Shown in pieces: positions 18,191-40,900 of a stretch of DNA of 44,726 nt (positions are counted from its first letter, which is position 1; the number at the start of each line of letters is the position of its first letter). The position numbers and the translations under genes are program-made. The notes beneath the pieces are model-generated. The model was not told the origin of the DNA. It saw only the letters and a program-made list of their open reading frames with translations, and did no database searches. Origin of the DNA: Candidatus Omnitrophota bacterium (GTDB lineage Bacteria > Omnitrophota > Omnitrophia > Omnitrophales > Aquincolibacteriaceae); contig JAYSWD010000100.1 in the NCBI GenBank assembly GCA_043718225.1, positions 1 to 44,726 of the forward strand, written 5' to 3'.

Positions 18191-18258
18191 GGTCTCCAGG
18201 ATTTCACTGAAGTTTCCGTTAATATCTTTTTCTTGCTCTGCTCGCCGAGCAAGAAAAA
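18191..18258 (+). repeat. Roughly 68-nt direct repeat, left copy, flanking the SPFH gene; contains a symmetric hairpin with A/T runs
   Basis: ggtctccaggatttcactgaagtttccgttaatatctttttcttgctctgctcgccgagcaagaaaaaa. The internal structure is TTTTTCTTGCTC-loop-GAGCAAGAAAAAA, which is bidirectional-terminator-like. It is about 85% identical to 19678-19746. Confidence 0.6.
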
Positions 18259-18353
18259 AGGATGAGGGGAAATTTATAATTATTTTAGCAGAATGAAATT
18301 GCTCACAGCTTTCATGCATGCTAAGCTTTCACCGAATTTTAAAAGGAGGCTTC

Positions 18354-19649
18354 ATGCAAGTGGTTTATTTATATCTTATTATTTTTGTTATCGTCCTCAT
18401 TCCGCTATTTTTTTTGCGGCACATTTTGGGCGGTATGCTTGGTCTTTATCGGATTGTCGCGCCCAACGAAGCCCATGTGAGAGTTTTACGCAACACTAAG
18501 GAAATATTTTCTATTCGAAGTGGTAAAACATGCTATTGGTATATTCCCTTCATTACAAAGCTCAATCGTTTACCGCTGAGTAACCTTACCATTCCCGTCG
18601 ACAATGTGAAACTGAACGACAAGAACATGGCGAAGTTTCAATGTGATCTGGTTTGCTTTGTTAATATTCAAAATTTAGAGTTGGCCGCGGAACGGCTAGC
18701 GCTTTCTAACCTTGAAAAAGAAATGGGCTTTGACTTTGTGAAGCTTTCCGAAGACTTTAGGTCGATTATGGAGAGTATCGGCCGAACCGTAGTAACGAAA
18801 CAAACGATTCTTGATATTTATATGAACCGCCATTTGATGAGCGATGCGATTATTAAAGAGGTTGGGAGCGTTTTCCCAAAATGGGGTATTGAACTCGTCA
18901 ATCTTGAACTTAAACATATCAAGGATACCGAGGGAAGCACCATTATTTCTGACATTGAAAGAAAAGTAGCGGCTGAAATCCGGCGCGACGCGGACATCAG
19001 AATTGCTGAAACAACAAAAGAAGCTGAAATTGCCAAGGCGCAGGCTGAAGAAATTTACCGCAAAAGACAAATTGAAAAAGAAAAGGCGATCGGGATTTCA
19101 GAGCAGCAGAAGAATCAAGAAATCGCGATGATGCGCGCGGAAGCGAATGTACGCGAAGTACAGGCTATGCGTGAAATTGAAGTCGGAAAAGCAGAGATTG
19201 AGAAGCAAAAAATTGAAAAGCTGGCGGATGCGGAAAAAAGCAAGTTGACACTCGAGGCCGAAGGGCAGGCCGCGCAGGTGAAAGCGGTCGGACAAGCCGA
19301 AGCCGATATTATTCGAATCAAAAAAGAAGCGGAAGCCGCGGGAACTTTAAAGCTTGCGGAAGCCCTCAAGCAGTTTAACGAAACAGCCTTAAATGTGAAG
19401 ATGCTCGATATTCAAAAAGACATCATGATTGAAAAGTTCAAAGCTCTGGCAATCGTTGCGGGAGAAGCGGATATCCGTTGGATTATGAGCGGCCAGAACG
19501 CGCAAGACTTTTTCGGGTTGAATTTAAATGCCGAGGGAGGCGCAAACCTAAAGCAATTTTTGGATGAGTCAGAAATCCCTTTTGATAAGTTAAAGAGTTT
19601 TATTTCGGCTAATAAGGCAGAATCAGATAAAAAGCAAAGTTTGAAATAA
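18354..19649 (+). CDS. SPFH/band-7 (flotillin-like) membrane protein with long coiled-coil
   Basis: N-terminal TM 'VVYLYLIIFVIVLIPLFF', an SPFH core, and the flotillin-type EA-rich coiled coil 'EAEIAKAQAEEIYRKRQIEKEKA...AEGQAAQVKAVGQAEADIIRIKKEAEAAG'. An AAGGAGG RBS precedes ATG 18354. The listed ORF start at 18318 is probably too early. Confidence 0.75.
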   Translation: MQVVYLYLIIFVIVLIPLFFLRHILGGMLGLYRIVAPNEAHVRVLRNTKEIFSIRSGKTCYWYIPFITKLNRLPLSNLTIPVDNVKLNDKNMAKFQCDLVCFVNIQNLELAAERLALSNLEKEMGFDFVKLSEDFRSIMESIGRTVVTKQTILDIYMNRHLMSDAIIKEVGSVFPKWGIELVNLELKHIKDTEGSTIISDIERKVAAEIRRDADIRIAETTKEAEIAKAQAEEIYRKRQIEKEKAIGISEQQKNQEIAMMRAEANVREVQAMREIEVGKAEIEKQKIEKLADAEKSKLTLEAEGQAAQVKAVGQAEADIIRIKKEAEAAGTLKLAEALKQFNETALNVKMLDIQKDIMIEKFKALAIVAGEADIRWIMSGQNAQDFFGLNLNAEGGANLKQFLDESEIPFDKLKSFISANKAESDKKQSLK

Positions 19650-19677
19650 TTTTCAAAAAACTCTCTTTTCCTTTTCG

Positions 19678-19746
19678 GGTCTCCAGGATTGCAAAGTAGT
19701 TTCCTTTGATACCTTTTTCTTGCTCTGCTGTGCCGAGCAAGAAAAA
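19678..19746 (+). repeat. Roughly 68-nt direct repeat, right copy, downstream of the SPFH gene
   Basis: ggtctccaggattgcaaagtagtttcctttgatacctttttcttgctctgctgtgccgagcaagaaaaa. Confidence 0.6.
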
Positions 19747-20063
19747 TGCATAACGGGAAGCTTCTTATGTTGAGCTTGATGCCGTGGATTTGTATATCAA
19801 ATGATTTGCTTCCTCAGCCGAATATATTTGGCCGCCTTGCTTCTCCTTTTATTGCCTCACCCCACACAGCGAAGCCGTCTTTGGAAGAAGGACTCAATCC
19901 GCGAGTTCTCCGCCATCGGGACGGAGCTGTTTGAGCGGGTGGAGTCCTTCTTTCAAAGACCAACCACTTACAAAGTTACTCATTTTTTAGTCTTTTCTGC
20001 CTTAACCCCGCCCTGGGTTTTTACTTTGACAGTTTCTATAGGCTTCGCTACAATTCGCCCTCT

Positions 20064-26998: not shown

Positions 26999-27979
26999 AT
27001 GGCGACTAATTTTAAAGCAAAAAATCATGACGAGCTCATGCTTTTTTCCGGTAATTCCAATCCCGAACTTGCCAAAGAAGTGGCGCAATTATTAAACGTC
27101 AAATTGGGTGAAGTTCTCGTAGGCCGTTTTCCTGAAGGCGAAATTCATGTTCAAATCCGCGAAAATATCCGCGGTAAAGATGTTTTTTTGCTTCAGTCGA
27201 CATGCAATTCGCCAAACGATTATTTGATGGAGCTTTTGATTCTGGTGGATGCCGCGCGCCGCGCTTCCGCCCGCCGCATTACCGCCGTGCTTCCGTTTTA
27301 CGGTTATGCGCGTCAGGACCGCAAAGACCGTCCGCGTGTTCCGATTACCGCGAAACTCGTCGCCAATTTATTGGTGAGCGCCGGAGCGGACCGCGTTTTG
27401 ACCATGGATTTACATTCCGGGCAGATTCAAGGTTTTTTTGATATTCCCGTGGATCATCTTTATTCGATCAATATCATGGGCCAATATTTAAAGAAGAAAA
27501 AATTAAAAAATTTGGTTGTGGTTTCTCCCGATGTCGGCGGCATCAAAATGGCGCGCGCTTATTCGAAACTTTTAAACAGTAGTTTGGCGATCGTGGACAA
27601 GCGGCGCGAAGACGCGGCGAAAACTTCGGTGATGAATATTATCGGAGAAGTTAAAGGGAAGAATGTGGTCATCGTGGATGATTTGATTTCCACCGGCGGA
27701 TCCGTTGCCGAAGCTTCCAAGGCCTTGAAAGCGAACGGTGCTTTAGATATCTATGTGGTTGCCGTGCATCCGGTTTTGGCCGGTCCGGCGATCGAACGGT
27801 TACAGGGAGCTCCGATCAAAGAGCTGATTGTTTCCAACACGATTCCGATTTCCGCGAACAAGAAAATCAAAAAAATCACCCAGCTTTCCGTTGCGCCGCT
27901 TTTGGCCGATGCGATCGCGCGCATTCATTATAATGCGTCGGTAAGCGAACTATTCCGCCGCTCCGGTGTCGAAGCCTAA
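26999..27979 (+). CDS. prs: Ribose-phosphate pyrophosphokinase
   Basis: 'DLHSGQIQGFFDIPVDHLY', 'VVSPDVGGIKMARAY', and the PRPP-binding motif 'VVIVDDLISTGGS'. Confidence 0.9.
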   Translation: MATNFKAKNHDELMLFSGNSNPELAKEVAQLLNVKLGEVLVGRFPEGEIHVQIRENIRGKDVFLLQSTCNSPNDYLMELLILVDAARRASARRITAVLPFYGYARQDRKDRPRVPITAKLVANLLVSAGADRVLTMDLHSGQIQGFFDIPVDHLYSINIMGQYLKKKKLKNLVVVSPDVGGIKMARAYSKLLNSSLAIVDKRREDAAKTSVMNIIGEVKGKNVVIVDDLISTGGSVAEASKALKANGALDIYVVAVHPVLAGPAIERLQGAPIKELIVSNTIPISANKKIKKITQLSVAPLLADAIARIHYNASVSELFRRSGVEA

Positions 27980-27986
27980 CCTCATA

Positions 27987-28766
27987 CCTCCGTAGCCGCG
28001 TCGGCTCACATCCACGCAGGAGCCGACGCGGCTACGGAGGCCTGTTTTGCAAGTTGGCGTTGATACTCAATGTTTGAGTTAACAAAATAGGCGTAATTCT
28101 TCGGCTCAACGGAAATCCGGTTTTGAAAGCTGCAAATAGGAAGCTCCACGTTAGATTCGATGTATTCATGATAAGACGACCATTTCCATTCTTCCGGTTT
28201 ATCGACTAGATAAGCGGTGACCGGATTTAAATGAATGTAGCGCGTAAGATGTAGGACCTGCTCATCACTTTCACATAAAACTTTCTTGCTACGACCCTGC
28301 CATAATGGTCCTTTTCGATTGTGCAAAAAATTGAAATAGTGGGTATAACTGTTTAAGACATCATTTGAAAACTTTGATACAAACTCTTCTGAGTCAGCTT
28401 CCACGGCAATATGAAAATGAGTTGGCATGAGACAGTAAGCAAGGATGGTGATGGTTCTATTTTTATTGATGGGGAACGCCAGCAACGCGGAGAGGGAATT
28501 CTTTGTGTGTAATTCAAGAAATCGTGAGAAAGACACAAAAGCAGGTTTTGATTGATAAAATTTTAAAAGCATTTGCATTCGTAGGAAATCTTGAGGCCTA
28601 CAAAAAACTTCGTAACCCGCAATGCTCTTGTTGAATAAGTGGTAAACGAGGGGTGGCATGTATTCATTATAATCATAATATAATTATATTTAAATAAATA
28701 TTATGCTCTTTTCCACCGTAACCGCGTCGGCTCCGCTCTACGTGTGAGCCGACGCGGTTACGGTGG
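27987..28766 (-). mobile_element. RAYT/IS200-like unit: Y1 (HUH) transposase gene flanked by two near-identical REP-type hairpins
   Basis: Left hairpin 27987-28040: CCTCCGTAGCCGCGTCGGCTC-12-nt loop-GAGCCGACGCGGCTACGGAGG. Right hairpin 28713-28766: CCACCGTAACCGCGTCGGCTC-12-nt loop-GAGCCGACGCGGTTACGGTGG. The stems match at 19 of 21 positions. The transposase gene lies between them. Confidence 0.7.
28006..28659 (-). CDS. REP-associated tyrosine transposase (Y1 HUH, IS200-like family)
   Basis: HUH motif 'PTHFHIAVEA' and catalytic Tyr context 'RYIHLNPV', 217 aa. The 3' end of the ORF runs into the left hairpin. Confidence 0.75.
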   Translation of the reverse strand: MPPLVYHLFNKSIAGYEVFCRPQDFLRMQMLLKFYQSKPAFVSFSRFLELHTKNSLSALLAFPINKNRTITILAYCLMPTHFHIAVEADSEEFVSKFSNDVLNSYTHYFNFLHNRKGPLWQGRSKKVLCESDEQVLHLTRYIHLNPVTAYLVDKPEEWKWSSYHEYIESNVELPICSFQNRISVEPKNYAYFVNSNIEYQRQLAKQASVAASAPAWM

Positions 28767-28957
28767 TTATGAATTGATAGATGGCACTCTTTTTTTATGC
28801 TTATAGAGATTTTTTAAATTAAATTGAACCGACATTAGTTTTTTCGCTAGATTTAATTCTCAAATCTAAATTTTTTTTCATTTTCACTCTTGTTTTAAAC
28901 CCTCTCTACGAGTACATTTTTGGAACCTTTTTCCACTCTTTTTAAAAACGTTTTGTT

Positions 28958-31900
28958 TTGAAGGATTTCATGTTTCAAAAATGCTTCGGAAAATTTCTGC
29001 GGGCCACGGCAATCGTGACGCTTGTGACTTATATTCCGACTAATTTTTCTTATGCAGGTGTGACAGGGGCCGCGCCCGAAATTTCACTGCCCGCCGCATG
29101 GCAATTGAGTCAAAGTCTTGCGCTTGGATTGCCCGCTGAATTAGGCCGCATTGAAAGTTTGTCGCCCGGCCGCAAAGGCATTATTTTTCATCTTCAAACT
29201 GCGCACGGACATTATGAGGCGCAGGTCAAAATTCAAAAAATTCTCGAACAATTTGCCGGGCAATACGGATCCTATCCCGTGCTTCTGGAAGGTGCAGCCG
29301 GCAGGCTCAATGCCGAGCGCATTAATTTCTTTCCCAAAAATCCCGAACGCACAAAAGCAGCGGCGCATTTGCTTGCAAAAAAAGCGTTGGTCAAAGGGCC
29401 GGAACTTTACTTACTTGATCATCCCTCCGCTTTGGTGCAGGGCATCGAAAACGAAGCGGCGTACTGGGACAATCATCATCAATTTACATCGGTTTTACGC
29501 GCGCGTGAAGCGACGCAAACATTTTCAGAGGAATTCGACCGTGAGATGGAAAAAACAGCGGCCATTTTCGCGCCGGCTTTGCGCGGCTTTCTCAAAAGAG
29601 CCGAGCAGCATGAATTAGGAATTGTTTCTTACGAAAGCTGGATCGAAGAATTGCGCAACGCGGCCCAAAAGCATCTGAAAGTTGATTTAACGGACGCGGC
29701 CTGGCAGCTGCCGTGGCCGATGCTGGTGCGGTTTTTTAAAATTCAAAAAATTTCCAAAGCGTGGGATTCTCAAAAATATGAAAAAGAGAAGCCGCTTTTT
29801 ATTCGGGATGTCGAAAAGTATTTGACGAATCACAAAGTCCGAATCACGAATCACGAATTGTTTGATCGAATCAAACAATTGCTTGATTCCGCAGGGAAGA
29901 ATGTGCAGCTGCCTGAGCCCGAAACGGAAAATGCATTCGCCGAAATGCTGCGTTATTTGCCGCGCGATTTTGATTTTAAAACTTATCCGAATGTAACGCG
30001 CTTCATGGGGCTGCTTATCTTACAAAGCGAATTGCGCCCCGCCGCGCTCGTGTCTGAAATGCAGCGGATAGAACAGCTTGTCATGAATCAACTTGCGCGG
30101 GATGAAAGTGAAAAAGAAATTGGCACTGTTTTTTCTGATTACCGTCTGCTGAAAAAAACACTCGCATTGCAGTTGACACCGGATGATTTTAGAAAAATTA
30201 TTGAGCGTACAGCGACCAGCGTACAGCGTGCAGCGAAAATGCAGCCTTCTCAAATTACAGAGCGGCTTAAAGCGCTCAACAATCAACGCCGCGCTCAATA
30301 CTCGGTACGGGGTACGGGGTACGCAGAACCCTCTTCGAATTCAGTTCATGAGATTAAGGTTAAGTATCTCAAAGAGTTGGATGGGCTATTTAATCTTGCA
30401 ATTGAATTCTATCAGGGTGCGAAAAAGCGCGACGAACTCATGATTCAAAACACGGAGAATTATTTACAAAAAAATCCCGCGAAGTTTGCGGTTCTGGTGA
30501 CCGGGGGATTTCATACCGATGCCATGCGCAAGCAATTTGAAAAAGAGGGTTATGCCTACGCAGTCGTGACGCCCGCCATTTCCGGTCCCGATGAAGAGGG
30601 ATACAAAGCATATTTGAAAAATATGCTACAAAGCAGCACAGCGTACAGCGTACAACGTACCGCGCAAACGACATCGGGGTCTGTCCTTGGCGCGAATGCG
30701 ACGGGGACTGACCCCCATGCTCTTTTCAATCGCAACCAAAATCTTGAATCTGCTTATGGCACCGATATTTTGGGAGAAGCGACGCGTCGTTCTGAATTTA
30801 GAATGCTCGTGCAAGCTGCGCGTGACGGGAATTTAAGCTTACCGCACCGCTCTGAAAACCGCGCTTCCGCCGAACCTGCCGAAGAAGAGCTTCCTGCCCC
30901 AAGGACGTCAGCAGAATTAGCACAAAGAACAACTTGGCCTACCAGCAGAATTTCAAAAGCAGCGTATTCGGCCAAAATAGAGAAACGCAGAGGGCGCTCT
31001 GAAGCGCGGGATAAGAGACCGGATCCTGCCGGTGAGTTGGTGACCCAGGATGAAAAGAGGCGTAGAGCTTTTTCGAATCAAGCAACGAATCGCTTGAACA
31101 GCAAGACAGCCTTGCTTGTGGTCGTTTTTGCGACGGCATTTTTGATTTTTGGGCCATTGTGGCTTTATTTAGATTCAGTCACAACGAAAATGGCCGCGGT
31201 TGATGCGCAGAAAAAGCAATATTTTTTGGATGGGGGGCCGGATGCACTAGGTGAATTCAAGCCGGTTGTACCGCATACGTTTTGGGACACGCTGGTTGAA
31301 ATTTGGCAGTGGGTCTTGGTTGCAGGGCAATATGTTTTAGCGGCGGGCATCGCGGTTGTTGTTCTCAAAATTGTTTCCTCGCTGTATTTTTCTTTTCGCG
31401 CCATGCGTGATGCGCGCGTGGGATATGTCATGCTCCCGGACAGCGATAATCTTGAAGCGGCATTCGATCGGCTTTTGTGGTATCGCGATGAAAAGCATTT
31501 TCAGGTTTCAATACGCCTGAATGGCGACGGAGAGCATGTTTTAGATTCGCAGGCCGTTTCCGAACGTTTTTTTGCAGCAATTAAACGGGCCCTTATTTCC
31601 GATTACGGAGCCGGCAGAAAAAATCCTATTTCAGCCAGCTATTTATTTGACAATGCCGCCAAAAAAGTGACTTTGCATTTAAAGACGCGCCGCCAAAATC
31701 CGAAGGATCGCGGCGAGTTCGAAGCGACGAACTTGATCGAGGGAACTTTTTTATTCACACCGCCTTGGCACCGTCGAAGCTGGATTACAAAAAACTTAAA
31801 CCGCCTTGCCGATCAAATGAGCGCAGCGCATGACGAAAAGCAGACGCGTGTTATTCGCGGCATGCCGCGGTCCGCGACGAAGCAGAATGATATGGTTCTG

Positions 31901-34900
31901 GTTTTTCGTCCCGATACGAAAGCATTATCAAATGTGGCTATGTATATGCGTGTGCTGCTTGCGATATGGCGCCATGGTTACGCTGTCGTCGAAAGCCGGG
32001 CTTATTCAGCGGCTGATTTAAGATACGGCATTATTAATCAGCCGTCTATTCTTGCGCAATTGTCTCCGGCCATGGAGGCTCTTTCAGCGGGTAAAATAAC
32101 CGGCAATAAGGATGGGGGTGAAGCTTTATTTTTTACTCCGGAGCAACGGAGCCTATTTCAGCGGGAAGCCCTTCCGTTTATGGCGGAGAAAGGTACCGAT
32201 GAGGAAAACTTGATTGGCGCGGGAGCATTATTACAGAAGTCCGGTTTAAAATTGCGCGATTTGAAAGCTTTATATCAAAAAGCACCGCAGGATATTTTCG
32301 GAGAAGGTGATGAACGTTTTGAAATCTCTATTTTGACTTTGCCCGATGCTGAGCATATTCAGCCCCAATTCAGAAACCGAACACTAGCCGTTTTGAACGT
32401 GTTTTATGAAATTGAAAAAGCGCGATTTATAGAAAGTTCCGATTCCACGGTGGTTTTGCGCCTCCGGCCCTTGAGAAAATTTCCGCTTCCGGTTTCAGAA
32501 CGGCAAGTAGCGCTTCTTCGCCATTTTGGTTTTCAGAATACAACACAGATGTCGGTCGATTCCTGGTCTTGGCGCGCGCAAGAAGATGATCCTTTGCTTG
32601 GATTGGGCCCCTATTACAGCTTTGATTCTCAGCGCCCATTTATCGAGATTATGTTAGCGGAGGAAGTTGCCGTTGCGCTGCGCGCCTGGTTTACCCCGCA
32701 AATAACTTCGCTGCGTTCCGAAATGAGGGTGGAGCTGCAGGGAAGCGAGCCTACTTTTAAAGCGGGGTCTTTACCGCCGGGCTACAAACTTTTGAAATTC
32801 GATTTTACGGAAGAAGATAGGGAAAAGGTTTCAGAACTGTTTTCCGGCATGAAGCAGAATCTTCTCGCGCACCCAGGCCACAACGCACAAAGAAGATTCA
32901 CGAATCATATTGTCAAAAAAGTTTTTGGGCTGGCTGTTGCTCCGAAGCCGGGCGTTGCGCGGCATGCTGTTTATTTTGTGATTACGGATAAAAATCAAAT
33001 CGCGGCGGTTTATTTGCCCGCGTCTCAGCAGGAAGGCCTGGTAAAAGAAATCGCTGCCGGACATATTTTTTTGCCGAAACGAACCACGGAGTTTGGGCCT
33101 GTCAAAAAACATTTAGAGCGTCAGGGAATTGACAAAAAAGACATTTCTTCCTCTGCTGAAAGTTCAGCCGCGTACCTTGAATCCCAAAACCAGTCCAGTT
33201 TCGTTTTTGCTTCCCCCGCACGCTCCGAAATGCGGGAGTTTAAGCATGATAATTTAAACTGGAAAATTGCCGCTGACGAAGAAGTCTTATCGAAGGCTGC
33301 TGTGGATGCGATTGCAAAAGTGCTACTGGCGAAACCCAAAGCTGTTTTTCTTTTACCGGCGGGCAAAACGTCAGTGCGCATGTATGAGATTTTAGCGGAG
33401 CGAGCTAATGAAGAAGAAATCGATTTGACGCCGGCTACGATTTTTATGCTCACGGAGTATCGTGCAGGCAAAACCGCCCGCGCCTTTATTGACGAACATA
33501 TGAACAGCCCCATTGCTAGATTGAAAAGGCCCTCTGCGATTTATGTTTTGGATGGCACGACGAGGGAACCACAGAAAGAGGCGGAACAATACGAAAGAAT
33601 GATAGCCGAAGCAGGCGGTGTGGATCTTGCCGTATTAGAAATCGGTAATCAGGGTGAAATCGGTTTTAACGAAGTGGGCGCGTCTTTTGATTCCCCGGCG
33701 CGCGAAGTTACTTTGTCCGACACTTTACGAGCAGAGCACCAGGTGAGTTCTATGAAAGGGTTTACGGTGGGCATGCGAGTCATTCTTGATTCCAGAAAAA
33801 AAATTCTTTTGATCAGCGGTGCATCCAAAGCCAAAATTGCCGGAAAACTTTTTGGTCAAAAACCGGACCTATCTCTTCCCGCAAGCGTGCTGAAGCAGAG
33901 GGGGAATACAGATGTTTTGATTACAGAAGATGCCGAAATGAACATGGGTTTGCCGGAAAAAATGCAGGGCGCCCCGGGTTTTGAAGTTTATCAAGAAAGA
34001 GTGCATGCCGTGTTGGCGCAGGTTGTTGATCGGTGGATTGAGTCGGATAATAGTTACAAAGCGTATTTAAAAATATTGATCGAACTTGTTAAGAAAAATT
34101 TGAGAGTTGCGCCATTTTATACATTTTCAGAAATTGCGAGCGCGCCCGTGTTTAAGGAAGCAAAAAACATTCATCTTTTGCCTGAAATACTTGGCAATGC
34201 TGAGGTTGGCATGCGCGAAATAAATGTTTTTAAAACCGCTCCAGCATTACCCCCAAGTGATGAGGATCTAGCGGATGCATTGCGCGTCAAACGCGACACC
34301 GAACTTTTGGCTGCAACAACGATTTCGCGCGCGGAACTCGAAAAAGTCAATACTTCACAGGAGCCGTTGGGAATCAGCTTTAGCGGGCGCGAACAAAAAA
34401 TACATGCTGTTTGGTGGGGGCTAACAGAGATTCAACGCTCAGATTTTTCAAATTATTATGGAATCGGTACGCCGGAGACACCGCTTGCTCCGGCTGCATC
34501 GCAAATGGATATTGCAAAAGCACGCGGAAATGTTACGTCGGCGAATGTAGGCGCATCGATAAGAGTAGCAATAAGGAAACTGCGCGCGTTTGACGAACAG
34601 CCAGCTGTGGATGGGGCGCCTGAAGAATTGGGGCTGGCGCTAACTGATTTAATTGCTGAGATTTTGGCTGCTATGCCGGCAGGGACGGAGCTGGATGCGC
34701 AGCTATTAGCACGGCTTAAGAAGGCCGGACCCAAAGATGATCGCACTTGGCTCGAAGTTATTTTATTTAGCCGTCAAAAAGCTCTTTTAAAAATGTATGC
34801 CGACAAGCCGTTTGCAGCGGATGAAAAAGTTTCTCTCAAAGATCTTGTCGATGCTGCGCGAGGGAGTGATTCCGTCGGCAAATCTGTTTTGAAAAAAAGC

Positions 34901-37900
34901 ATCCTAAAATTTGTTGCAGAGAAAGGAATTGCCTGGGATTTGCTGTTTTTAAATGATCCGAATTTTGTGGAAAAAGCGGCTGGACCCTCTGCCGGAAAAG
35001 GATTGCGGGGCATAAGCACGAATCTTAAATGGACGCTTGCTAAGTTTTTAGAGCATGCGGACACGGATCGCGCATCGCTTGAAGAGGCAATAAAAAGCAA
35101 AACGGGAATTTTCGCGAAACCGCATGTTCGCATGTATTTTGGGTTGCGATTTTTGGGAAAAACCGAACGCGAAAATAAGGAAGTTATTGATTACCTTGCC
35201 AGAAGATACAAAGGGCAATATAAAATTGATGATGAATGGGCGCATGATTCCATTAAGCTTGCGAAAACCCAGTTTCATGGCATCAAAGAATTGCCGAAAG
35301 CCGAAACCGCGGCGAAGGAAGTTCCAGCTCCGGCGGCGGCAGAGTTGCAGGCTGACCCAAATCCCGCGGCGCCTCCTATGGAAATAACACCAATTGCGGC
35401 ACCTGATGGAATTCTTCCGGTTGAGGGGGCAGCTGCAGAACATGATGAGCCAGCCGCGGCGCCGCTCACTACTGATGCACCAGCAGGGAATGATTCTGAG
35501 CCAATAGCCGCGATTGCCGCTCCACCCGAATCTTATTCCGTTCTACGCGAGATGATGCAAAGGTCAAAACTTGCTTCGCCGCATCTTGACGAAATTCTCG
35601 CCTTAAGACGCAAAAATTGGATAAGAAAAATTCTGGAATTGGATTTAGTCGGTTATGAAGCGCGGTTAGCAGATTCTGCGCAGAAGGCACAGGCAACGCG
35701 GGAAATTCGAGGAATTATTGTCGAAGCAAAAATTGAGCGTTTGATTGAAAGTCCACATGGCGCGGCCGAAGAGCAAGCACGAGAAGTCGTAATTAAATTG
35801 AAAGAAATGATTCATTGGGAAGATCATGCCGGCGACATTGTTAAAATTGTCGCGCCTGAGCCGAAGCCTCGCGCGCCACAACCTGCTGCCGCGCCCTCTC
35901 CCTTGGCCGCCGCACCTGCTGAGCCGGAACTTCCGCCGGTTGATAGTGCGACAACAAAAGATTTTCAAAGCGACTTGCGTAAATGGCTGAATCTCGCTGA
36001 CCACAACTCTTTGGCACGGTTACTTCAGGATGCGTTTTTGAATCCTGCGGATGAAGTGAAAGTGAGTAAATGGGTGAGAGATAATCCGGATGCCGAAATC
36101 AAACTACGTTATTTGGAAAAACACAGCGCATCCCCGAGACAACAGCGTGAACTTTTTGCCAAGGCCCAAGCTATTTATAAAAGGTCCGATTACCCCCTTC
36201 TCGATCAGTTAAACGCGTTGAAATCAGAATTAGACGCTTTAATTGTGGATGCTAAAAGAACGGGCGCAGATTTAAACCCACTACTCAATTGGATGGGAAC
36301 AAAAGGTGCTGGGTTTAAACACAATGCGGACTATTTAGCAGGCAAAGGCTTTCCAGTTCGAGAGCATTTAGAAGCTCATGCTAACGCTGAAGATTTGTTT
36401 GTCGGCCGTTCCGAAATGCGAGAAATATTAATAGAAGCAGTCTCTCTCGACCCCATCGTTTTAGACGACGGCCGGGAAATTCAAATGTTTGCGATTGATC
36501 CGAACGATGATCTTAATTGGAACGCGATACGCGAAGAAGGGGGATTGAGTGACGTTATTGATGAATTAATACCCGAAGACTTTCCGTCACCCTCACTTCT
36601 TTTTACTGAGATACAATTTCGTCTTGGAATATTGGATGGCCGTCTTGTTTTGATAGATGATGTGGATGGTCATGAACACAGAGGATCAACGACTCATAGA
36701 GGGATGGCTTTGGGTTTAAACGGTGAAAAGGCACAAATAGAAGCTGCCACGCGAGGCGCGCAGCTCACAATAATCGATCTTCCCGCAATCGAGCTTCCAG
36801 TGCGCATTGGTACCCCGGCTGCTGCTGGCGGGTACACTCCGATTACCTTTGAAGTTTCTAAGGCCCGCTCCGAATTCCGTTTCGCGCCGATGGCCACTTT
36901 TTCCGTGCTAGCAAAAAAAATTAGAGGCATCGATCCTTTTTATGCGGTCTTATTAGGTTTAGTTGGAGTGATTTTTTGGTTGAATGATCACAATTGGGGC
37001 GGTGCGGGAGTAATCGTCGCGCTTTTACTTCTTATAGCTAGAAAAGCAGGTGACAGAAAATTGCCGGATCAAACAAAAGAGCTGCTGGCAAATATTTTTT
37101 GGGAAATAAACGCTCGCAATATAAAAACAATTGTCTTTTATGTTAATGGGAACAAACGCGCGCACCAAATTGAGGTTGATCGGGATTTTGAACCGATTCT
37201 CAGGAAATCAATCCGTGAGGTTTTGGCACTTGCCACAAACAATGGGAACAATGGAATTGCCTGGGATTTCCCTGCCCCTGACGTGCGAGATTCCACTATT
37301 TTAACGGTAAACGTTTCCACTTCGCGCTCCGAAATGCGTACTGCGGATGAAAAAGTTCAAGATTTTATTACGACACTGCGAATGAAGCGGGCTGCCGTTG
37401 ATTTTACGAACAATGACATTCGTATTGCTTTGAATCCGTCCGAAGTCGCAATTGATGAAAGCCGTATTCCTACATTTACGGGACGATCAAAGGAAATTTT
37501 TGATATTTTTTCATTCATTGCTTATCGGCTCGGCTTAACGGTGGATCTTGTGTCTCTGGGTGAGCCTAAGACTGAGGAGCAATGGCTTGTTTTGACATCG
37601 CAACCCTCCGACACTGCCTTCCTGGAAAAATTGAAGACGACAGTCGAAACGCGCTATCCAAATTTGTTGTATAAAAATCAACTCGCGGCATCTGATCAAG
37701 ATTTTTATGCACCAACTAAAAAGCGGCCTTTTCTAGTCGCCCTGATGACTTTATTTGTTTCTATTGGGGGGATGATTTTAAATTTGCCCGCTCTATCTAA
37801 TTGGATGAAAAGCCGGGGTTGGACGAGTGCAAATGATCTTGTTTCAAGCATGCCTTTAATTTTCATTTTTGTGGCTAGCGCGGTTGTTGCGGGTGCTACT

Positions 37901-40900
37901 TACTTCGTCTCAAGTTTCATCGCCCGGAAATTTGCCCAACATCGTTCCGCAAAAAATTTGCGCAAAGCCGAACGTTTAGACGTCGCCAATGAAAAATGGC
38001 CGCACAATTTTAACAAAACACAACGCTCTGAATTACGCGAAGCGCAGCTCCGGCCCATTTTGGAAGGAAGCACGGATGCTTTAACCTGGTTTCAGGCATT
38101 CAGTGAATTTGAGCCCGCACAACCAAGCGACAAAGTGATTGTCACGATTCAGATTGCGCGCGGCATTCGAATGCAAGTCCCGATCTGGCGCGCAGCGCTC
38201 ACCGACCCTGAACTTCAAGAATCCGCTTACCGCTATCTTTCGACCTGGACTTATAATCTTTCCGCGCGATACGGGACTTCGTTTGCTGCGATCGGGACAG
38301 AAGGTACGGCAGAGTTGATTGATGTTGCAAGAATTGAGCATTTGTTAACTCGAGAGAATTTAGCCGCAGTTCATCAAAGCTACGAAGCATCCGGCGGTGT
38401 TAGTTCCTTTGGCATTAGTAATTATGCAAACGGAGGCGAGTCCGTTGAATTTAAAAAACTTTCGGAATTAACAGACGCAGAAAAAGAAGAAAAACCGCTG
38501 AGTTTAAATATCAAATTACGTACGGATGCGCCCGGATCTTATCTAGGCGTTGATATTGGCGGCGGTTCTGCGAAATTTGCTGTAATTCGAAACGGAAAAA
38601 TTTTAGATATTCCCGAAGAATTTCAAAGTCTTCCAACCGTTCTTTTAAATACCGCTAACGTAGAAGTTCAAGAAACGCCCCAACAATATTCCGAACGAAT
38701 CGCAGGGCATATTGAAAAAATTGGGAAAGCGCTTGGTATCAGATTCGACGGTATTGGAATCGATACTCCCGGAGCCAAACATTTGACTGAAAATAAGATG
38801 GTGACACTAGGGCAGCTTCCCGTTGTTAAGAAATGGGACATGGGCGCGGTTAAAGAGTTTGGCCGCTTACTTCCTCTTACTGTTGCGCAGAAACAAGGGC
38901 TGGATTCTGAAAAAGTGATGATTCGCAACGATATGGACGGCGTGCTTCCGGGCGTAGCCTCGGTGCTGCCGCAAATTGTGCCTGAATTTTGGAAAAGAAC
39001 CGGCGGTAATTTCCGTTTCGATTGGATGGGGACGGGGCATGGCAATCAGGACGCGATCGGCGGCCTTCCCATGAATGCGCCAACAGAGGCCGGTCATTTT
39101 GTGCATGATTTTGCACGCCCCGGCGCAAAAGTTTTTGACACCGAAGCTTCTACGAGCATTCCCGGAATGATACTCGATGCAATCACGCAGGTGAGTGGCA
39201 GCAGGAGTCGCTGGGATGAATTACTGCAAGGAAAATTTAAACCATTGGCCGAGGAGATTGCTAAACGTCCAGTTGATGCAAATTATGAAAGAGGAATGAT
39301 TGCTGCGAGGACTTTACGCCGCTTTGCTAACGAGTATGCCGCAAATTTAGCAATCCATTACTGGATGACTCAATCCACGGGGAAGGGCAGTCCGGATGAA
39401 ATTGTTTTTGGCGGCGGAATTGTCCGTAAAGGTAGAGAAGATTATTTTAAAAATTTGATACTTGAAGCGCTTAAAAAATATGATTTGCAGGATAAAATTC
39501 GCATTACGGTCATATCTGATGAGGACCTCAAAAAAGCAAATATGAGCCCGGACAATGCCGGCCCCATCGGAATGGCGATGTTTATTCAAAGCGTTCTCGC
39601 GTCGAACCAAGCCACGACAACGTTAGAGCCCAATCCTATTACTGCAGCCGAATGGGCAGCGGTAAGAAAAGATTTTAAAGTTGATGATGACGCGCGGATA
39701 CCTCTCGCGCTAGCGGGAGTCTCTGAAACGGATGCCCAGAGAATTTACAGTCATCTCTTTCGTTATGATGGGCCGATTCAGCGTGTCATGGCCGCATTAC
39801 ATAAATTGGACCCAAGGCGATTTGACCTTCACCCTATCCTTTTCCTTGTGAATGATGATTTGTCAGACTATGACCCAAATTGGGGGCCAATTGTGCAAAG
39901 AACCCCACTTAAAGTAATTGTCGTTCCTGTCTCGACAGCATTTTTACAGAAAGTGAAAGCTGCACCTGCCGGTACTTTGTCAGAAGCTGAAATGGAGTTG
40001 TATTCCCGCTTTGCGTTTTCACTTACGGTTGCCCGCATGAGCCCCGCTGTGCATATGATTTTAAATACAGAAAACGTCTCGATTTCATTACCGGTGGAAA
40101 TTATTTTGAAAATGGCCTCCTGGGATGCCGCAGCATTGCGCAACTTTGAAGAGGTTCTTGGCTATAAAGTGGATGAGGGACTTGGGCAAAGCAATATTCC
40201 AGCACCCGCTTATTTAGATCCCAATGTTATAGATGCCCTTCGGCAAATGAATCTTGGTGATGGAAGAGCGGATTTCTTAGAGGTAAGCGATGCATTAGCA
40301 GCTTTTGTGAACGCCGAAGAAATTCGAACGGCAATCCGTTCAGGAGCATTGGATCATGCCCGCCAAATATTTTTGGGGCTTAAAGAAACCAAGGGCTGGC
40401 CTATGAATTATCTATTACCGCAGCAAATTGATCCGGCGGGGGTGCTTTATCAAGATGAAATGCATGCTTACCTGGGGATTATGAACCATTTAATTCTCAT
40501 TGAACAGTTTCGTGATGCTTTGCCGGCATTTTACGAAGAACAAATTCGCGCGTTGGAAAACGCGCAGGGCTTTTCTGCCGAAAAAGTCGCGCTTGCACGT
40601 AAGTATTTGGAACAATCGCCGGTATTGCGCGAGATGGCGGTGAAACAGACGGAACTTTCTGTGAGTCATATCACACAAAAATATCTTTTACCGGTGTCTC
40701 GCTTAATCGGGCGTGAAATTTTGCGCGAAAAAATAAGACAACAGCTAAATATGGGCCAGGAAGCGGCAAGTAAACTTGTTTTCACAGGATTGACCGAAGA
40801 ACTTTTCGAACGTGCCGCACAATTAGCGGGTAAACCGACCGCTCAGGATGTTGGAGTAGACCTTTCACATGCGAGCATTAGCGCAAAGCGGAATTCTGGC

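Follow-up and report, generated by a model that had tools for sequence, protein, structure and literature searches.

Organization of the locus

The window analysed here is the entire 44,726-bp NCBI contig JAYSWD010000100.1 of a Candidatus Omnitrophota bacterium. Nearly all of its genes lie on the plus strand, and the gene under study is a minus-strand gene for a RAYT-class transposase located between prs and a giant open reading frame (ORF). The RAYT gene and two matching 54-nt palindromes, one at each side of it, make up a cassette of about 780 bp (27987–28766), the interior of which has a GC content of 37–39% compared to about 45–55% in the flanks; across the family members the unit length is 728–808 bp. 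All features are listed in Table 1. A preliminary description of the region, made from the sequence letters, had proposed a Y1-HUH transposase on the minus strand with the stretches HFHIAVEA and YIHLNPV, bracketed by two hairpins with 21-bp stems that differ at two stem positions. Both motifs are present in the RAYT ORF and the stems indeed differ at two positions, namely 3 (T/A) and 9 (G/A), where the opposite arm compensates both changes.

The prs-side palindrome begins at the eighth nucleotide past the prs stop codon, leaving 7 nt between them, and overlaps the RAYT ORF over its final 11 codons and its stop codon. The C-terminal tail encoded by this overlap is variable among the relatives and has the lowest confidence in the structural model presented below. 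The other palindrome sits between the promoter-like site of the RAYT gene and a promoter-like site of the giant gene (TTGATA at 28774), and from its end there are 191 nt to the first possible TTG start (28958) and 203 nt to the ATG at 28970. The latter is the start kept in the relatives and is most likely the one used. These distances agree with the 8 nt and the approximately 190 nt of the preliminary description.

The RAYT protein

The predicted protein has the metal-binding HUH motif on a beta strand and the single catalytic tyrosine on a C-terminal helix that characterise the Y1 HUH superfamily. The HUH motif is H81-F-H83 within MPTHFHIAVEA, with a threonine preceding HuH, and the catalytic tyrosine is Y141 in RYIHLNPV (YIHLNP); WQ and WSS motifs are also present. 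Residues H81, H83, Y141, H143 and N145 are invariant among 55 homologs, and P146 is kept in at least 90% of them. In a Pfam scan Y1_Tnp (PF01797) was detected alone; its score of 24.6 bits is marginally above the gathering score of 23, and no C-terminal helix-turn-helix (HTH) or DnaA_C-like domain was found. The sole NCBIfam match is the model REP_Tyr_transpos (NF047646), with 56.2 bits against an equivalog cutoff of 80. This is also the only model matched by all 55 aligned homologs, with the same outcome below the cutoff, and the NCBIfam search gave no IS200-type match for the protein of the window. The profiles thus agree with the Y1_Tnp/RAYT identity proposed earlier, that of Pfam above its threshold and NF047646 below its cutoff.

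The only significant match in a sequence search of the PDB was TnpA_REP of E. coli (4ER8) with an E-value of 1e-4, and the HUH, WQ, YxxxNP and W-x-S motifs of the two proteins align, with Y141 placed at the tyrosine of the YIYINP sequence in 4ER8. An AlphaFold2 model, built with the 55 homologs, has a predicted local distance difference test (pLDDT) value of 89.8 and 4ER8 as its best fold match (E=3e-6, template modelling score 0.67 on the target). The transposases of ISDra2, IS608 and IS200 (2XM3, 2A6O and 2F4F) follow at lower rank with E-values of about 4e-4 to 8e-4, and all of the top 30 fold matches in the PDB are Y1 transposases. The sequence matches and the predicted fold support that the ORF encodes a Y1 HUH protein nearer to RAYT/TnpA_REP than to the TnpA of IS200. 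In the classification of Quentin et al. 2018 the tyrosine motif of class 2 is Y-x-x-x-N-P and that of IS200 TnpA YxxxQ, and subclass 2.1 has the Y motif Y[IV]HLNP, an SS tail and more than 200 residues (PMC6006769). The motif set of the window protein (T-HFH, WQ, YIHLNP, an SS tail and more than 200 aa) fits class 2, and judged by the Y motif subclass 2.1 is the closest.

The terminal palindromes

The 21-nt arms of both palindromes are 100% complementary. Folded as single-stranded DNA each gives about -31 kcal/mol, with z scores of -10 to -12, and none of 200 shuffled sequences folded as well. The 16-mer GTARCCGCGTCGGCTC occurs in the window at the two hairpins only, where 0.54 chance matches would be expected with 3 mismatches permitted. 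Each palindrome is an inverted pair of a short core, which reads CCGCGTCGG in the window and CCGCGTAGG in most relatives. The core common to the family is CCGCGT[A/C]GG, and two inverted copies of it make up each long palindrome in the window clade. An Rfam search of 27800–29100 returned only sub-threshold matches to miRNA precursors, which were rejected as generic long hairpins.

When the eight palindromes of four genomes were aligned to one helix of 22 pairs, 94.7% of the cells were paired and 8 of the 22 pairs varied on both sides. The covariation score was 0.328 compared to 0.136 in shuffled alignments, none of 500 reaching the observed value, and it dropped to 0.07 or less when the 3' partners were slid by 1–3 columns. 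Over the inner 15 bp the two palindromes of one genome are 87–100% identical, while identity among genomes is 50–93%, or 50–87% when the close pair L001/L129 is left out (L numbers denote the related loci and contigs that were compared with the window). Palindromes from the orthologous side are no more alike than those from opposite sides. The stems match within a genome and drift between genomes by compensatory changes, and this pattern reflects one of two processes, either concerted evolution of both ends or exchange of whole cassettes.

The 54/55-nt ends of the window unit are 80% complementary to each other, and those in L124 and L001 84–91%. The window loops match at 5 of 12 positions in either orientation, and since they match equally both ways the two hairpins are compatible with both relative orientations. 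Among genomes the loop orientation flips, between L001 and L129 on the prs side and between L001 and L124 on the giant-gene side. The prs-side palindrome reads GTAG-stem-loop-stem-CTAC, with GTAG paired to CTAC inside the stem; at this position GTAA is found in the giant-side copy and GCGA, GCAA or GTCA in relatives. The canonical REP foot, an unpaired 5' GT[AG]G, is therefore absent from the palindromes of the window, and it is absent or not conserved in the relatives. Within the core CCGCGTAGG of most relatives there is also a GTAG, which is replaced by GTCG in the window. The window palindromes have no GGGG run and thus no GGGGWSAS motif. A search of the outer junctions for a target or cleavage motif gave (T)AA/CC recurring at the upstream end, with the slash marking the junction, which is too weak and too AT-biased to be claimed.

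Occupied and empty junctions in related genomes

The order giant gene, hairpin-RAYT-hairpin, prs is found in four other lineages (L001, L124/L125, L129 and L145/L146). Their RAYT ORFs are full-length and intact, given the true start, and are 70% (L001), 69% (L129), 67% (L124/L125) and 58% (L145/L146) identical to that of the window. Hairpins homologous to those of the window are located at the same positions in L001, L129, L124 and L145. In three lineages (L142, L143/L144 and L147) prs is followed directly by the giant gene, and the spacers measure 358 nt, 276 nt and 241 nt respectively, the second of them with a textbook intrinsic terminator. The preliminary description had treated the unit as an insert between prs and the giant gene, and these cassette-less junctions agree with it. 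In L142 the place of the cassette holds an inverted repeat of 19–22 bp (AAAACCGATCCAAAGGCTT...AAGCCTTTGGATCGGTTTT) with an 83-nt spacer, possibly a small element of another kind.

When occupied and empty junctions were placed in a six-way alignment, their homology was lost after the stop codon of prs and found again from ATRAATTGAT on, about 2–3 nt past the outer foot of the giant-side palindrome, and from these break points the palindromes are the ends of the indel. The alignment shows the unit to be an insert which some genomes have and others lack at the prs–giant gene junction, with the palindromes as its exact limits. Pooled over five neighbouring proteins the window and L142 are 93% identical and L129 and L143 96%, with L001 at 91–92%, and L124 is 84–87% identical to all others. 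By this grouping the genomes without a cassette are nested among those that carry one. The nucleotide identity of prs among the lineages is 77–88%, indicating that all divergences are at the species level.

Homologs at other sites and the search for dispersed copies

Homologs with about 50% identity are found in four other contexts, each protein always with the same neighbours (Table 1), and each of these distant lineages has its own core variant at both ends of the gene. The named members of the family are annotated as transposases of Omnitrophota or Elusimicrobia; a protein identical to that of the window was not on record. Counted as representatives of 50%-identity clusters the family comprises 20,841 members at E≤1e-3, 5,614 at E≤1e-10 and 92 at E≤1e-30. 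When viral contigs in IMG/VR were searched with the family alignment no relatives were found.

A covariance model (R1), built from palindromes of the window clade only, was run on 226 kb consisting of the window and related loci from 13 sources, four of them cassette-less. In the window it scores 71 bits at the prs-side palindrome and 69 bits at the other. The remaining matches are the training copies and previously unseen flanks of L145, L131 and L130; nothing else in the 226 kb had an E-value below 5 and no solo copy was found. For the cassette-bearing loci, about 160 kb in all, the count of zero solo copies corresponds to a 95% upper bound of roughly 1 copy per 50 kb, and no second copy of the cassette is present in any locus examined. 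The hairpins occur only with a RAYT gene, at both of its ends, in all cassette-bearing relatives and in the distant homologs, which supports, as far as these sequences go, that they belong to it.

According to a classical REP/RAYT interpretation the two hairpins would belong to a dispersed REP/REPIN population, as its local copies, and a single-copy RAYT would spread this population through the genome. It is in line with the NCBIfam match to a RAYT model alone, with the best fold match to a TnpA_REP that is bound to a REP hairpin, and with a flanking arrangement equal to that of a REPtron (PMC6006769). The inverted copy located 78 nt upstream in L131 resembles a REPIN doublet, and the 12-nt units of L130 are arranged in tandem arrays of three direct units and one inverted. 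From these arrays and the doublet it appears that the unit can multiply locally, though no distant copies were seen. The absence of solo copies from the 226 kb, within the bound given above, and the lack of a conserved unpaired foot speak against such a population, and the naming of the hairpins as REPs in the preliminary description, in the sense of dispersed repeats, is not supported by the window and related loci, where stem copies flank RAYT genes only. A scan of metagenome contigs for the full hairpin core likewise returned only two unrelated high-GC contigs. We consider this interpretation unlikely.

The two contigs of that scan derive from soil and carry a different hairpin with a 23-bp stem, the same in both (GGCCCGACGCTCCGCGTCGGCTC...), downstream of unrelated genes. 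They share the 12-nt core of the window hairpin because the search pattern demanded it, and probably represent a true REP family of another organism. A search for the 16-mer GTARCCGCGTCGGCTC in 596 Gb of genome contigs was discarded; it gave at least 120 single chance matches in high-GC genomes, the pattern being too short.

Table 1. Coordinates of the cassette, of its neighbours and of the corresponding features in related loci.
Feature	Locus	Position	Strand	Remarks
prs	window	26999..27979	+	stop codon ends at 27979
prs-side palindrome	window	27987-28040		arms 27987-28007/28020-28040; 21-bp stem, 12-nt loop
RAYT ORF	window	28006..28659	-	217 aa
RAYT promoter-like site	window	28666..28694	-	TTTAAA, 17 nt, TATAAT; 10/12 consensus positions
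Giant-gene-side palindrome	window	28713-28766		arms 28713-28733/28746-28766; 21-bp stem, 12-nt loop
Giant ORF	window	28970-43009	+	4,679 aa
Indel with SPFH gene	window	18191-19768		
SPFH/Band_7 gene	window	18318..19649		between tsaD and hisG
RAYT gene	L001	10019-10654		
RAYT gene	L129	415-1050		
RAYT homolog	L126-128			nadC, RAYT, uvrB; two tandem AACCTACGCGGTT units at each gene end in L126
RAYT homolog	L130			His_Phos, RAYT, radical SAM; arrays of 3-4 units at ends
RAYT homolog	L131-133			cinA, RAYT, recA; GGCGACCGACGCGGTCGCC in L131, extra inverted copy upstream
RAYT homolog	L134-141			FAD oxidoreductase, RAYT, maf; in L134 ACATAACCCCGGAGGTTATGT at upstream end, ACACAACCCCGGAGGTTATGT at gene 3' end (one difference)
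Tandem arrays	L130	9935-9987 and 10618-10662		
Inverted doublet	L131	9861-9985		
Inverted repeat at empty junction	L142	10981-11107		
Giant gene	L001	1-9707		
Giant gene	L142	11339-20981		
Giant gene	L143	11257-20981		
Giant gene	L147	6265-16023		
Hairpin, soil metagenome	L122	120-185		23-bp stem
Hairpin, soil metagenome	L123	220-285		23-bp stem

Selection and base composition

L001 and L129 are the only pair of RAYT genes with unsaturated synonymous sites, and the ratio of nonsynonymous to synonymous substitution rates (dN/dS) between them is 0.088. In saturated pairs the proportion of nonsynonymous differences (pN) is 0.19–0.24 compared to a synonymous proportion (pS) of 0.77–0.83. These values show that the coding sequence is under purifying selection. 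The GC content and the GC content at third codon positions (GC3) of the RAYT gene are below those of its neighbours in nine of nine lineages (window, at 28041–28659, L001, L124, L129, L145, L126, L130, L131 and L134). The GC3 gap amounts to about 1–4 points in L001, L124, L129 and L145, about 10 in the window and more than 30 in L130 (31% versus 62–66%). The low GC3 holds even where the gene overlaps the start codon of the next gene and, recurring in all lineages, marks the cassette as distinct.

An active IS200-like insertion sequence (IS) that recently moved into the spacer between prs and the giant gene, with several identical copies elsewhere, might look similar in several respects. The unit is discrete, its one Y1 gene lies between hairpin ends, it is polymorphic for presence and absence, it has the low GC3 just described, and family members are found at five different chromosomal sites. 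However, the same site is filled in five lineages that differ at the species level, with RAYT proteins 55–70% identical and saturated synonymous sites, and proteins seen on several contigs always have the same neighbours. The motif YxxxNP is furthermore that of class 2 and not the YxxxQ of IS200 (PMC6006769), tnpB is missing, and IMG/VR yielded no relative. A recently transposed IS is for these reasons quite unlikely.

Expression signals and the giant gene

The -10 hexamer of the RAYT promoter-like site ends 7 nt before the ATG, and a TATAAT is found 7–9 nt before the ATG also in L001, L124 and L129, but not in L145. The RAYT mRNA may be leaderless, a weak suggestion from hexamer spacing that fits four genomes and not L145. 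Between prs and the RAYT gene, which are convergent, the prs-side palindrome is followed by TTTT within 4 nt and probably ends both transcripts. That it doubles as the prs terminator, as the preliminary description had it, is plausible from the sequence because the cassette-less L143/L144 has a terminator at that place.

The position of this hairpin only 7 nt past the prs stop codon, its T-run and the canonical terminator of the cassette-less relative might also be taken to mean that both hairpins are ordinary host terminators or regulatory structures, adjacent to a transposase gene by coincidence. This is extremely improbable, since the second hairpin lies in front of the RAYT promoter, a place at which transcripts do not end, both hairpins vanish together with the gene in L142, L143 and L147, and homologs at unrelated loci have the same core at both ends. 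A scan for consensus terminators called none in the window, the two hairpins included.

The giant-side hairpin ends 7 nt from the -35-like TTGATA upstream of the giant gene, and an influence of the cassette on this gene had been suggested in the preliminary description. No indication of it was found, and the upstream region from ATRAATTGAT on is conserved with and without the cassette. The proximity to TTGATA would also fit a fully domesticated host gene that acts on its own palindromes and regulates prs or the giant gene, for example by reversible excision or nicking, and purifying selection, the long residence at one junction and the matched palindromes, with no other detectable substrate, point in the same direction. 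Close relatives do without the cassette, however, and homologs adjoin unrelated genes (uvrB, recA and maf). Together with the equal conservation of the giant-gene upstream region and the persistently low GC3 this makes domestication very unlikely.

The giant protein contains the sequence RSE[M/F/L/A]R 11 times between residues 607 and 4151, where 0.02 occurrences are expected from 2,000 shuffles, and it might be a mark of junctions between modules, or of processing sites, in a polyprotein. Only one Pfam domain was detected, Glucosamine_iso at residues 1441–1646. Among close relatives the giant gene encodes 3,996 to 5,525 aa with differing Pfam content, such as UDPG dehydrogenase, LysM and hexokinase, or Glyco_transf_5 and NDK, or Glucosamine_iso, PGI and DHDPS. 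Five independent assemblies (L124, L125, L129, L145 and L146) break close to where the giant gene starts, about 100–300 nt past the giant-side palindrome, suggesting that this region varies among strains.

Nature of the cassette

The unit in the window is in our opinion a self-contained single-gene cassette of the REPtron/TIRtron type, with a Y1 HUH enzyme of the RAYT class and cognate palindromic ends, and we put the probability of this at roughly three in four. The diverged but long-held cassette, its matched ends, the presence/absence pattern and the occurrence of the core at distant loci together indicate an old low-copy element that is occasionally lost or exchanged, and not a recent insertion. 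By analogy with TnpA_REP and the TnpA proteins of IS608 and ISDra2, the RAYT protein would most likely bind the hairpin form of the palindromes in single-stranded DNA. It would then cut and rejoin the DNA at the feet of the palindromes by way of a 5'-phosphotyrosine intermediate.

Several observations weigh against this interpretation. The cutoff of the NCBIfam RAYT model is missed by 24 bits. The three empty sites differ in content (45 nt, a terminator and an inverted-repeat element), and being unlike each other they define neither a clean excision scar nor a target site. Between L001 and L129 the synonymous divergence (dS) of the RAYT gene is 0.73, about half of that in the flanking genes (1.26–1.51 for the adjacent prs, glmU and permease genes), which hints that the cassette has been swapped more recently than its flanks. 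The RAYT protein of L145 is the most divergent (55–58%), yet its prs is 93% identical to that of the window, and the low GC3 of the RAYT gene looks persistently foreign. By these comparisons vertical descent can be told apart only partly from a history of repeated exchange or of site-specific re-insertion. The single copy and the absence of dispersed copies are observed in the 44.7-kb contig of the window together with about 180 kb of sequence from relatives.

A wider proposal would be that the cassette belongs to a RAYT subfamily found throughout the Omnitrophota, with T-HuH, YIHLNP and about 205–235 aa (at least 92 clusters of 50% identity at E≤1e-30), whose cognate mini-palindromes of the CCGCGTAGG type are located only at the ends of its own gene and which serves no REP population. 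This is tentative and on balance doubtful. If true, the palindromes of the subfamily would be inverted, tandem or single units, and the cassette would be self-directed and single-copy, persisting over species-level timescales and upheld by purifying selection together with homogenisation of its two ends. Such a subfamily would represent an uncharacterised intermediate between an IS and a domesticated RAYT.

Among transposases that stay in one lineage for long periods, those of RAYT/REP systems have been studied best, and most descriptions come from Proteobacteria, Cyanobacteria and Bacteroidetes. The locus of the window and its relatives extend this theme to the Omnitrophota. They offer a natural series consisting of a junction with and without the cassette, five diverged pairs of protein and palindromes, and a 9-nt core that is variously arranged in distant homologs. 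The series is suited to the question of how a Y1 enzyme and its hairpins co-evolve, and it is relevant to the possible persistence of a RAYT that has no population of dispersed repeats. For annotation purposes the label transposase hides a conserved gene under selection, and the end palindromes should not be named REPs until genome-wide copies have been shown. The kind of element is already known; new here are the series at a shared junction, the empty sites, the compensatory changes in the stems and the core at unrelated loci.

A second insertion-like region in the window

The cassette had been regarded in the preliminary description as the only mobile-element signature of the window. This has to be corrected, since a second cassette-like indel, an SPFH gene with direct repeats, is present. 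The gene is flanked by a direct repeat of about 90 nt, with copies 78–87% identical, which includes a terminator-like hairpin. In L142, L143 and L124 tsaD adjoins hisG without the SPFH gene.

Comparison with known systems

The TnpA of IS200, IS608 and ISDra2 (class 1.1) is likewise encoded by a minimal unit of about 0.7–0.8 kb, a discrete indel that has a hairpin at each end and a single Y1 HUH gene. IS200/IS605 proteins have the YxxxQ motif and about 150 residues, which differs from the YIHLNP and 217 residues found here, and the distinct imperfect hairpins of their left and right ends contrast with the perfect palindromes of the window, which match each other. The window cassette also differs in having no tnpB, no near-identical copies in the loci examined, and no PDB sequence match to these transposases.

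In the double-foot REPs of subclass 2.4 in Cyanobacteria and Bacteroidetes, as in the prs-side palindrome, one foot carries a tetranucleotide and the other foot its complement, a pattern that an inverted REP dimer would be expected to give after loss of its centre (PMC6006769). The proteins of this subclass have YIxNNP, and REP insertions are found inside the gene; the window protein differs, and its GTAG is base-paired in a longer stem.

TIRtrons, or TIRYT, are RAYT-like genes between long terminal inverted repeats (TIRs), some of which are self-complementary and some of which overlap the 3' end of the gene; a family of such repeats is often missing from the rest of the genome (Di Nocera et al. 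2013; PMC3733652). They correspond to subclass 2.1 or Group 1 of Bertels. Long terminal inverted repeats bounding a RAYT-like gene are found also in the window, and its protein shares the Y[IV]HLNP, the SS tail and the length above 200 residues. Most TIRs contain GGGGWSAS and a C-terminal HTH of the DnaA_C type is present in the proteins, whereas neither was detected in the window cassette. Subclass 2.1 is also reported to lack REP-like secondary structures and to have an N before HuH, compared to the strong hairpin ends and the T of the window.

TnpA_REP of E. coli (RAYT, YafM; subclass 2.2 or Group 2 of Bertels) shares the Y1 HUH fold, YxxxNP, WQ and the W-x-SS tail with the window protein, but it has 165 residues and a D/N before HuH, compared to 217 residues and a T. 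Unlike those of the E. coli REPtron, the palindromes are perfect 21-bp stems that lack an unpaired GTAG foot, the 226 kb gave no dispersed REP copies for the window cassette, and the host belongs to the Omnitrophota and not to the Proteobacteria. Like the window cassette, the E. coli REPtron is apparently present in a single copy and has cognate palindromes at either side of its gene. The REPtrons and TIRtrons of the literature (PMC3733652; PMC6006769; PMC5581495) consist of a RAYT-like gene with cognate repeats, palindromic or inverted, at its borders, and the REPtron arrangement, with cognate palindromes on both sides, is found in the window, in its four syntenic relatives and in the four distant lineages.

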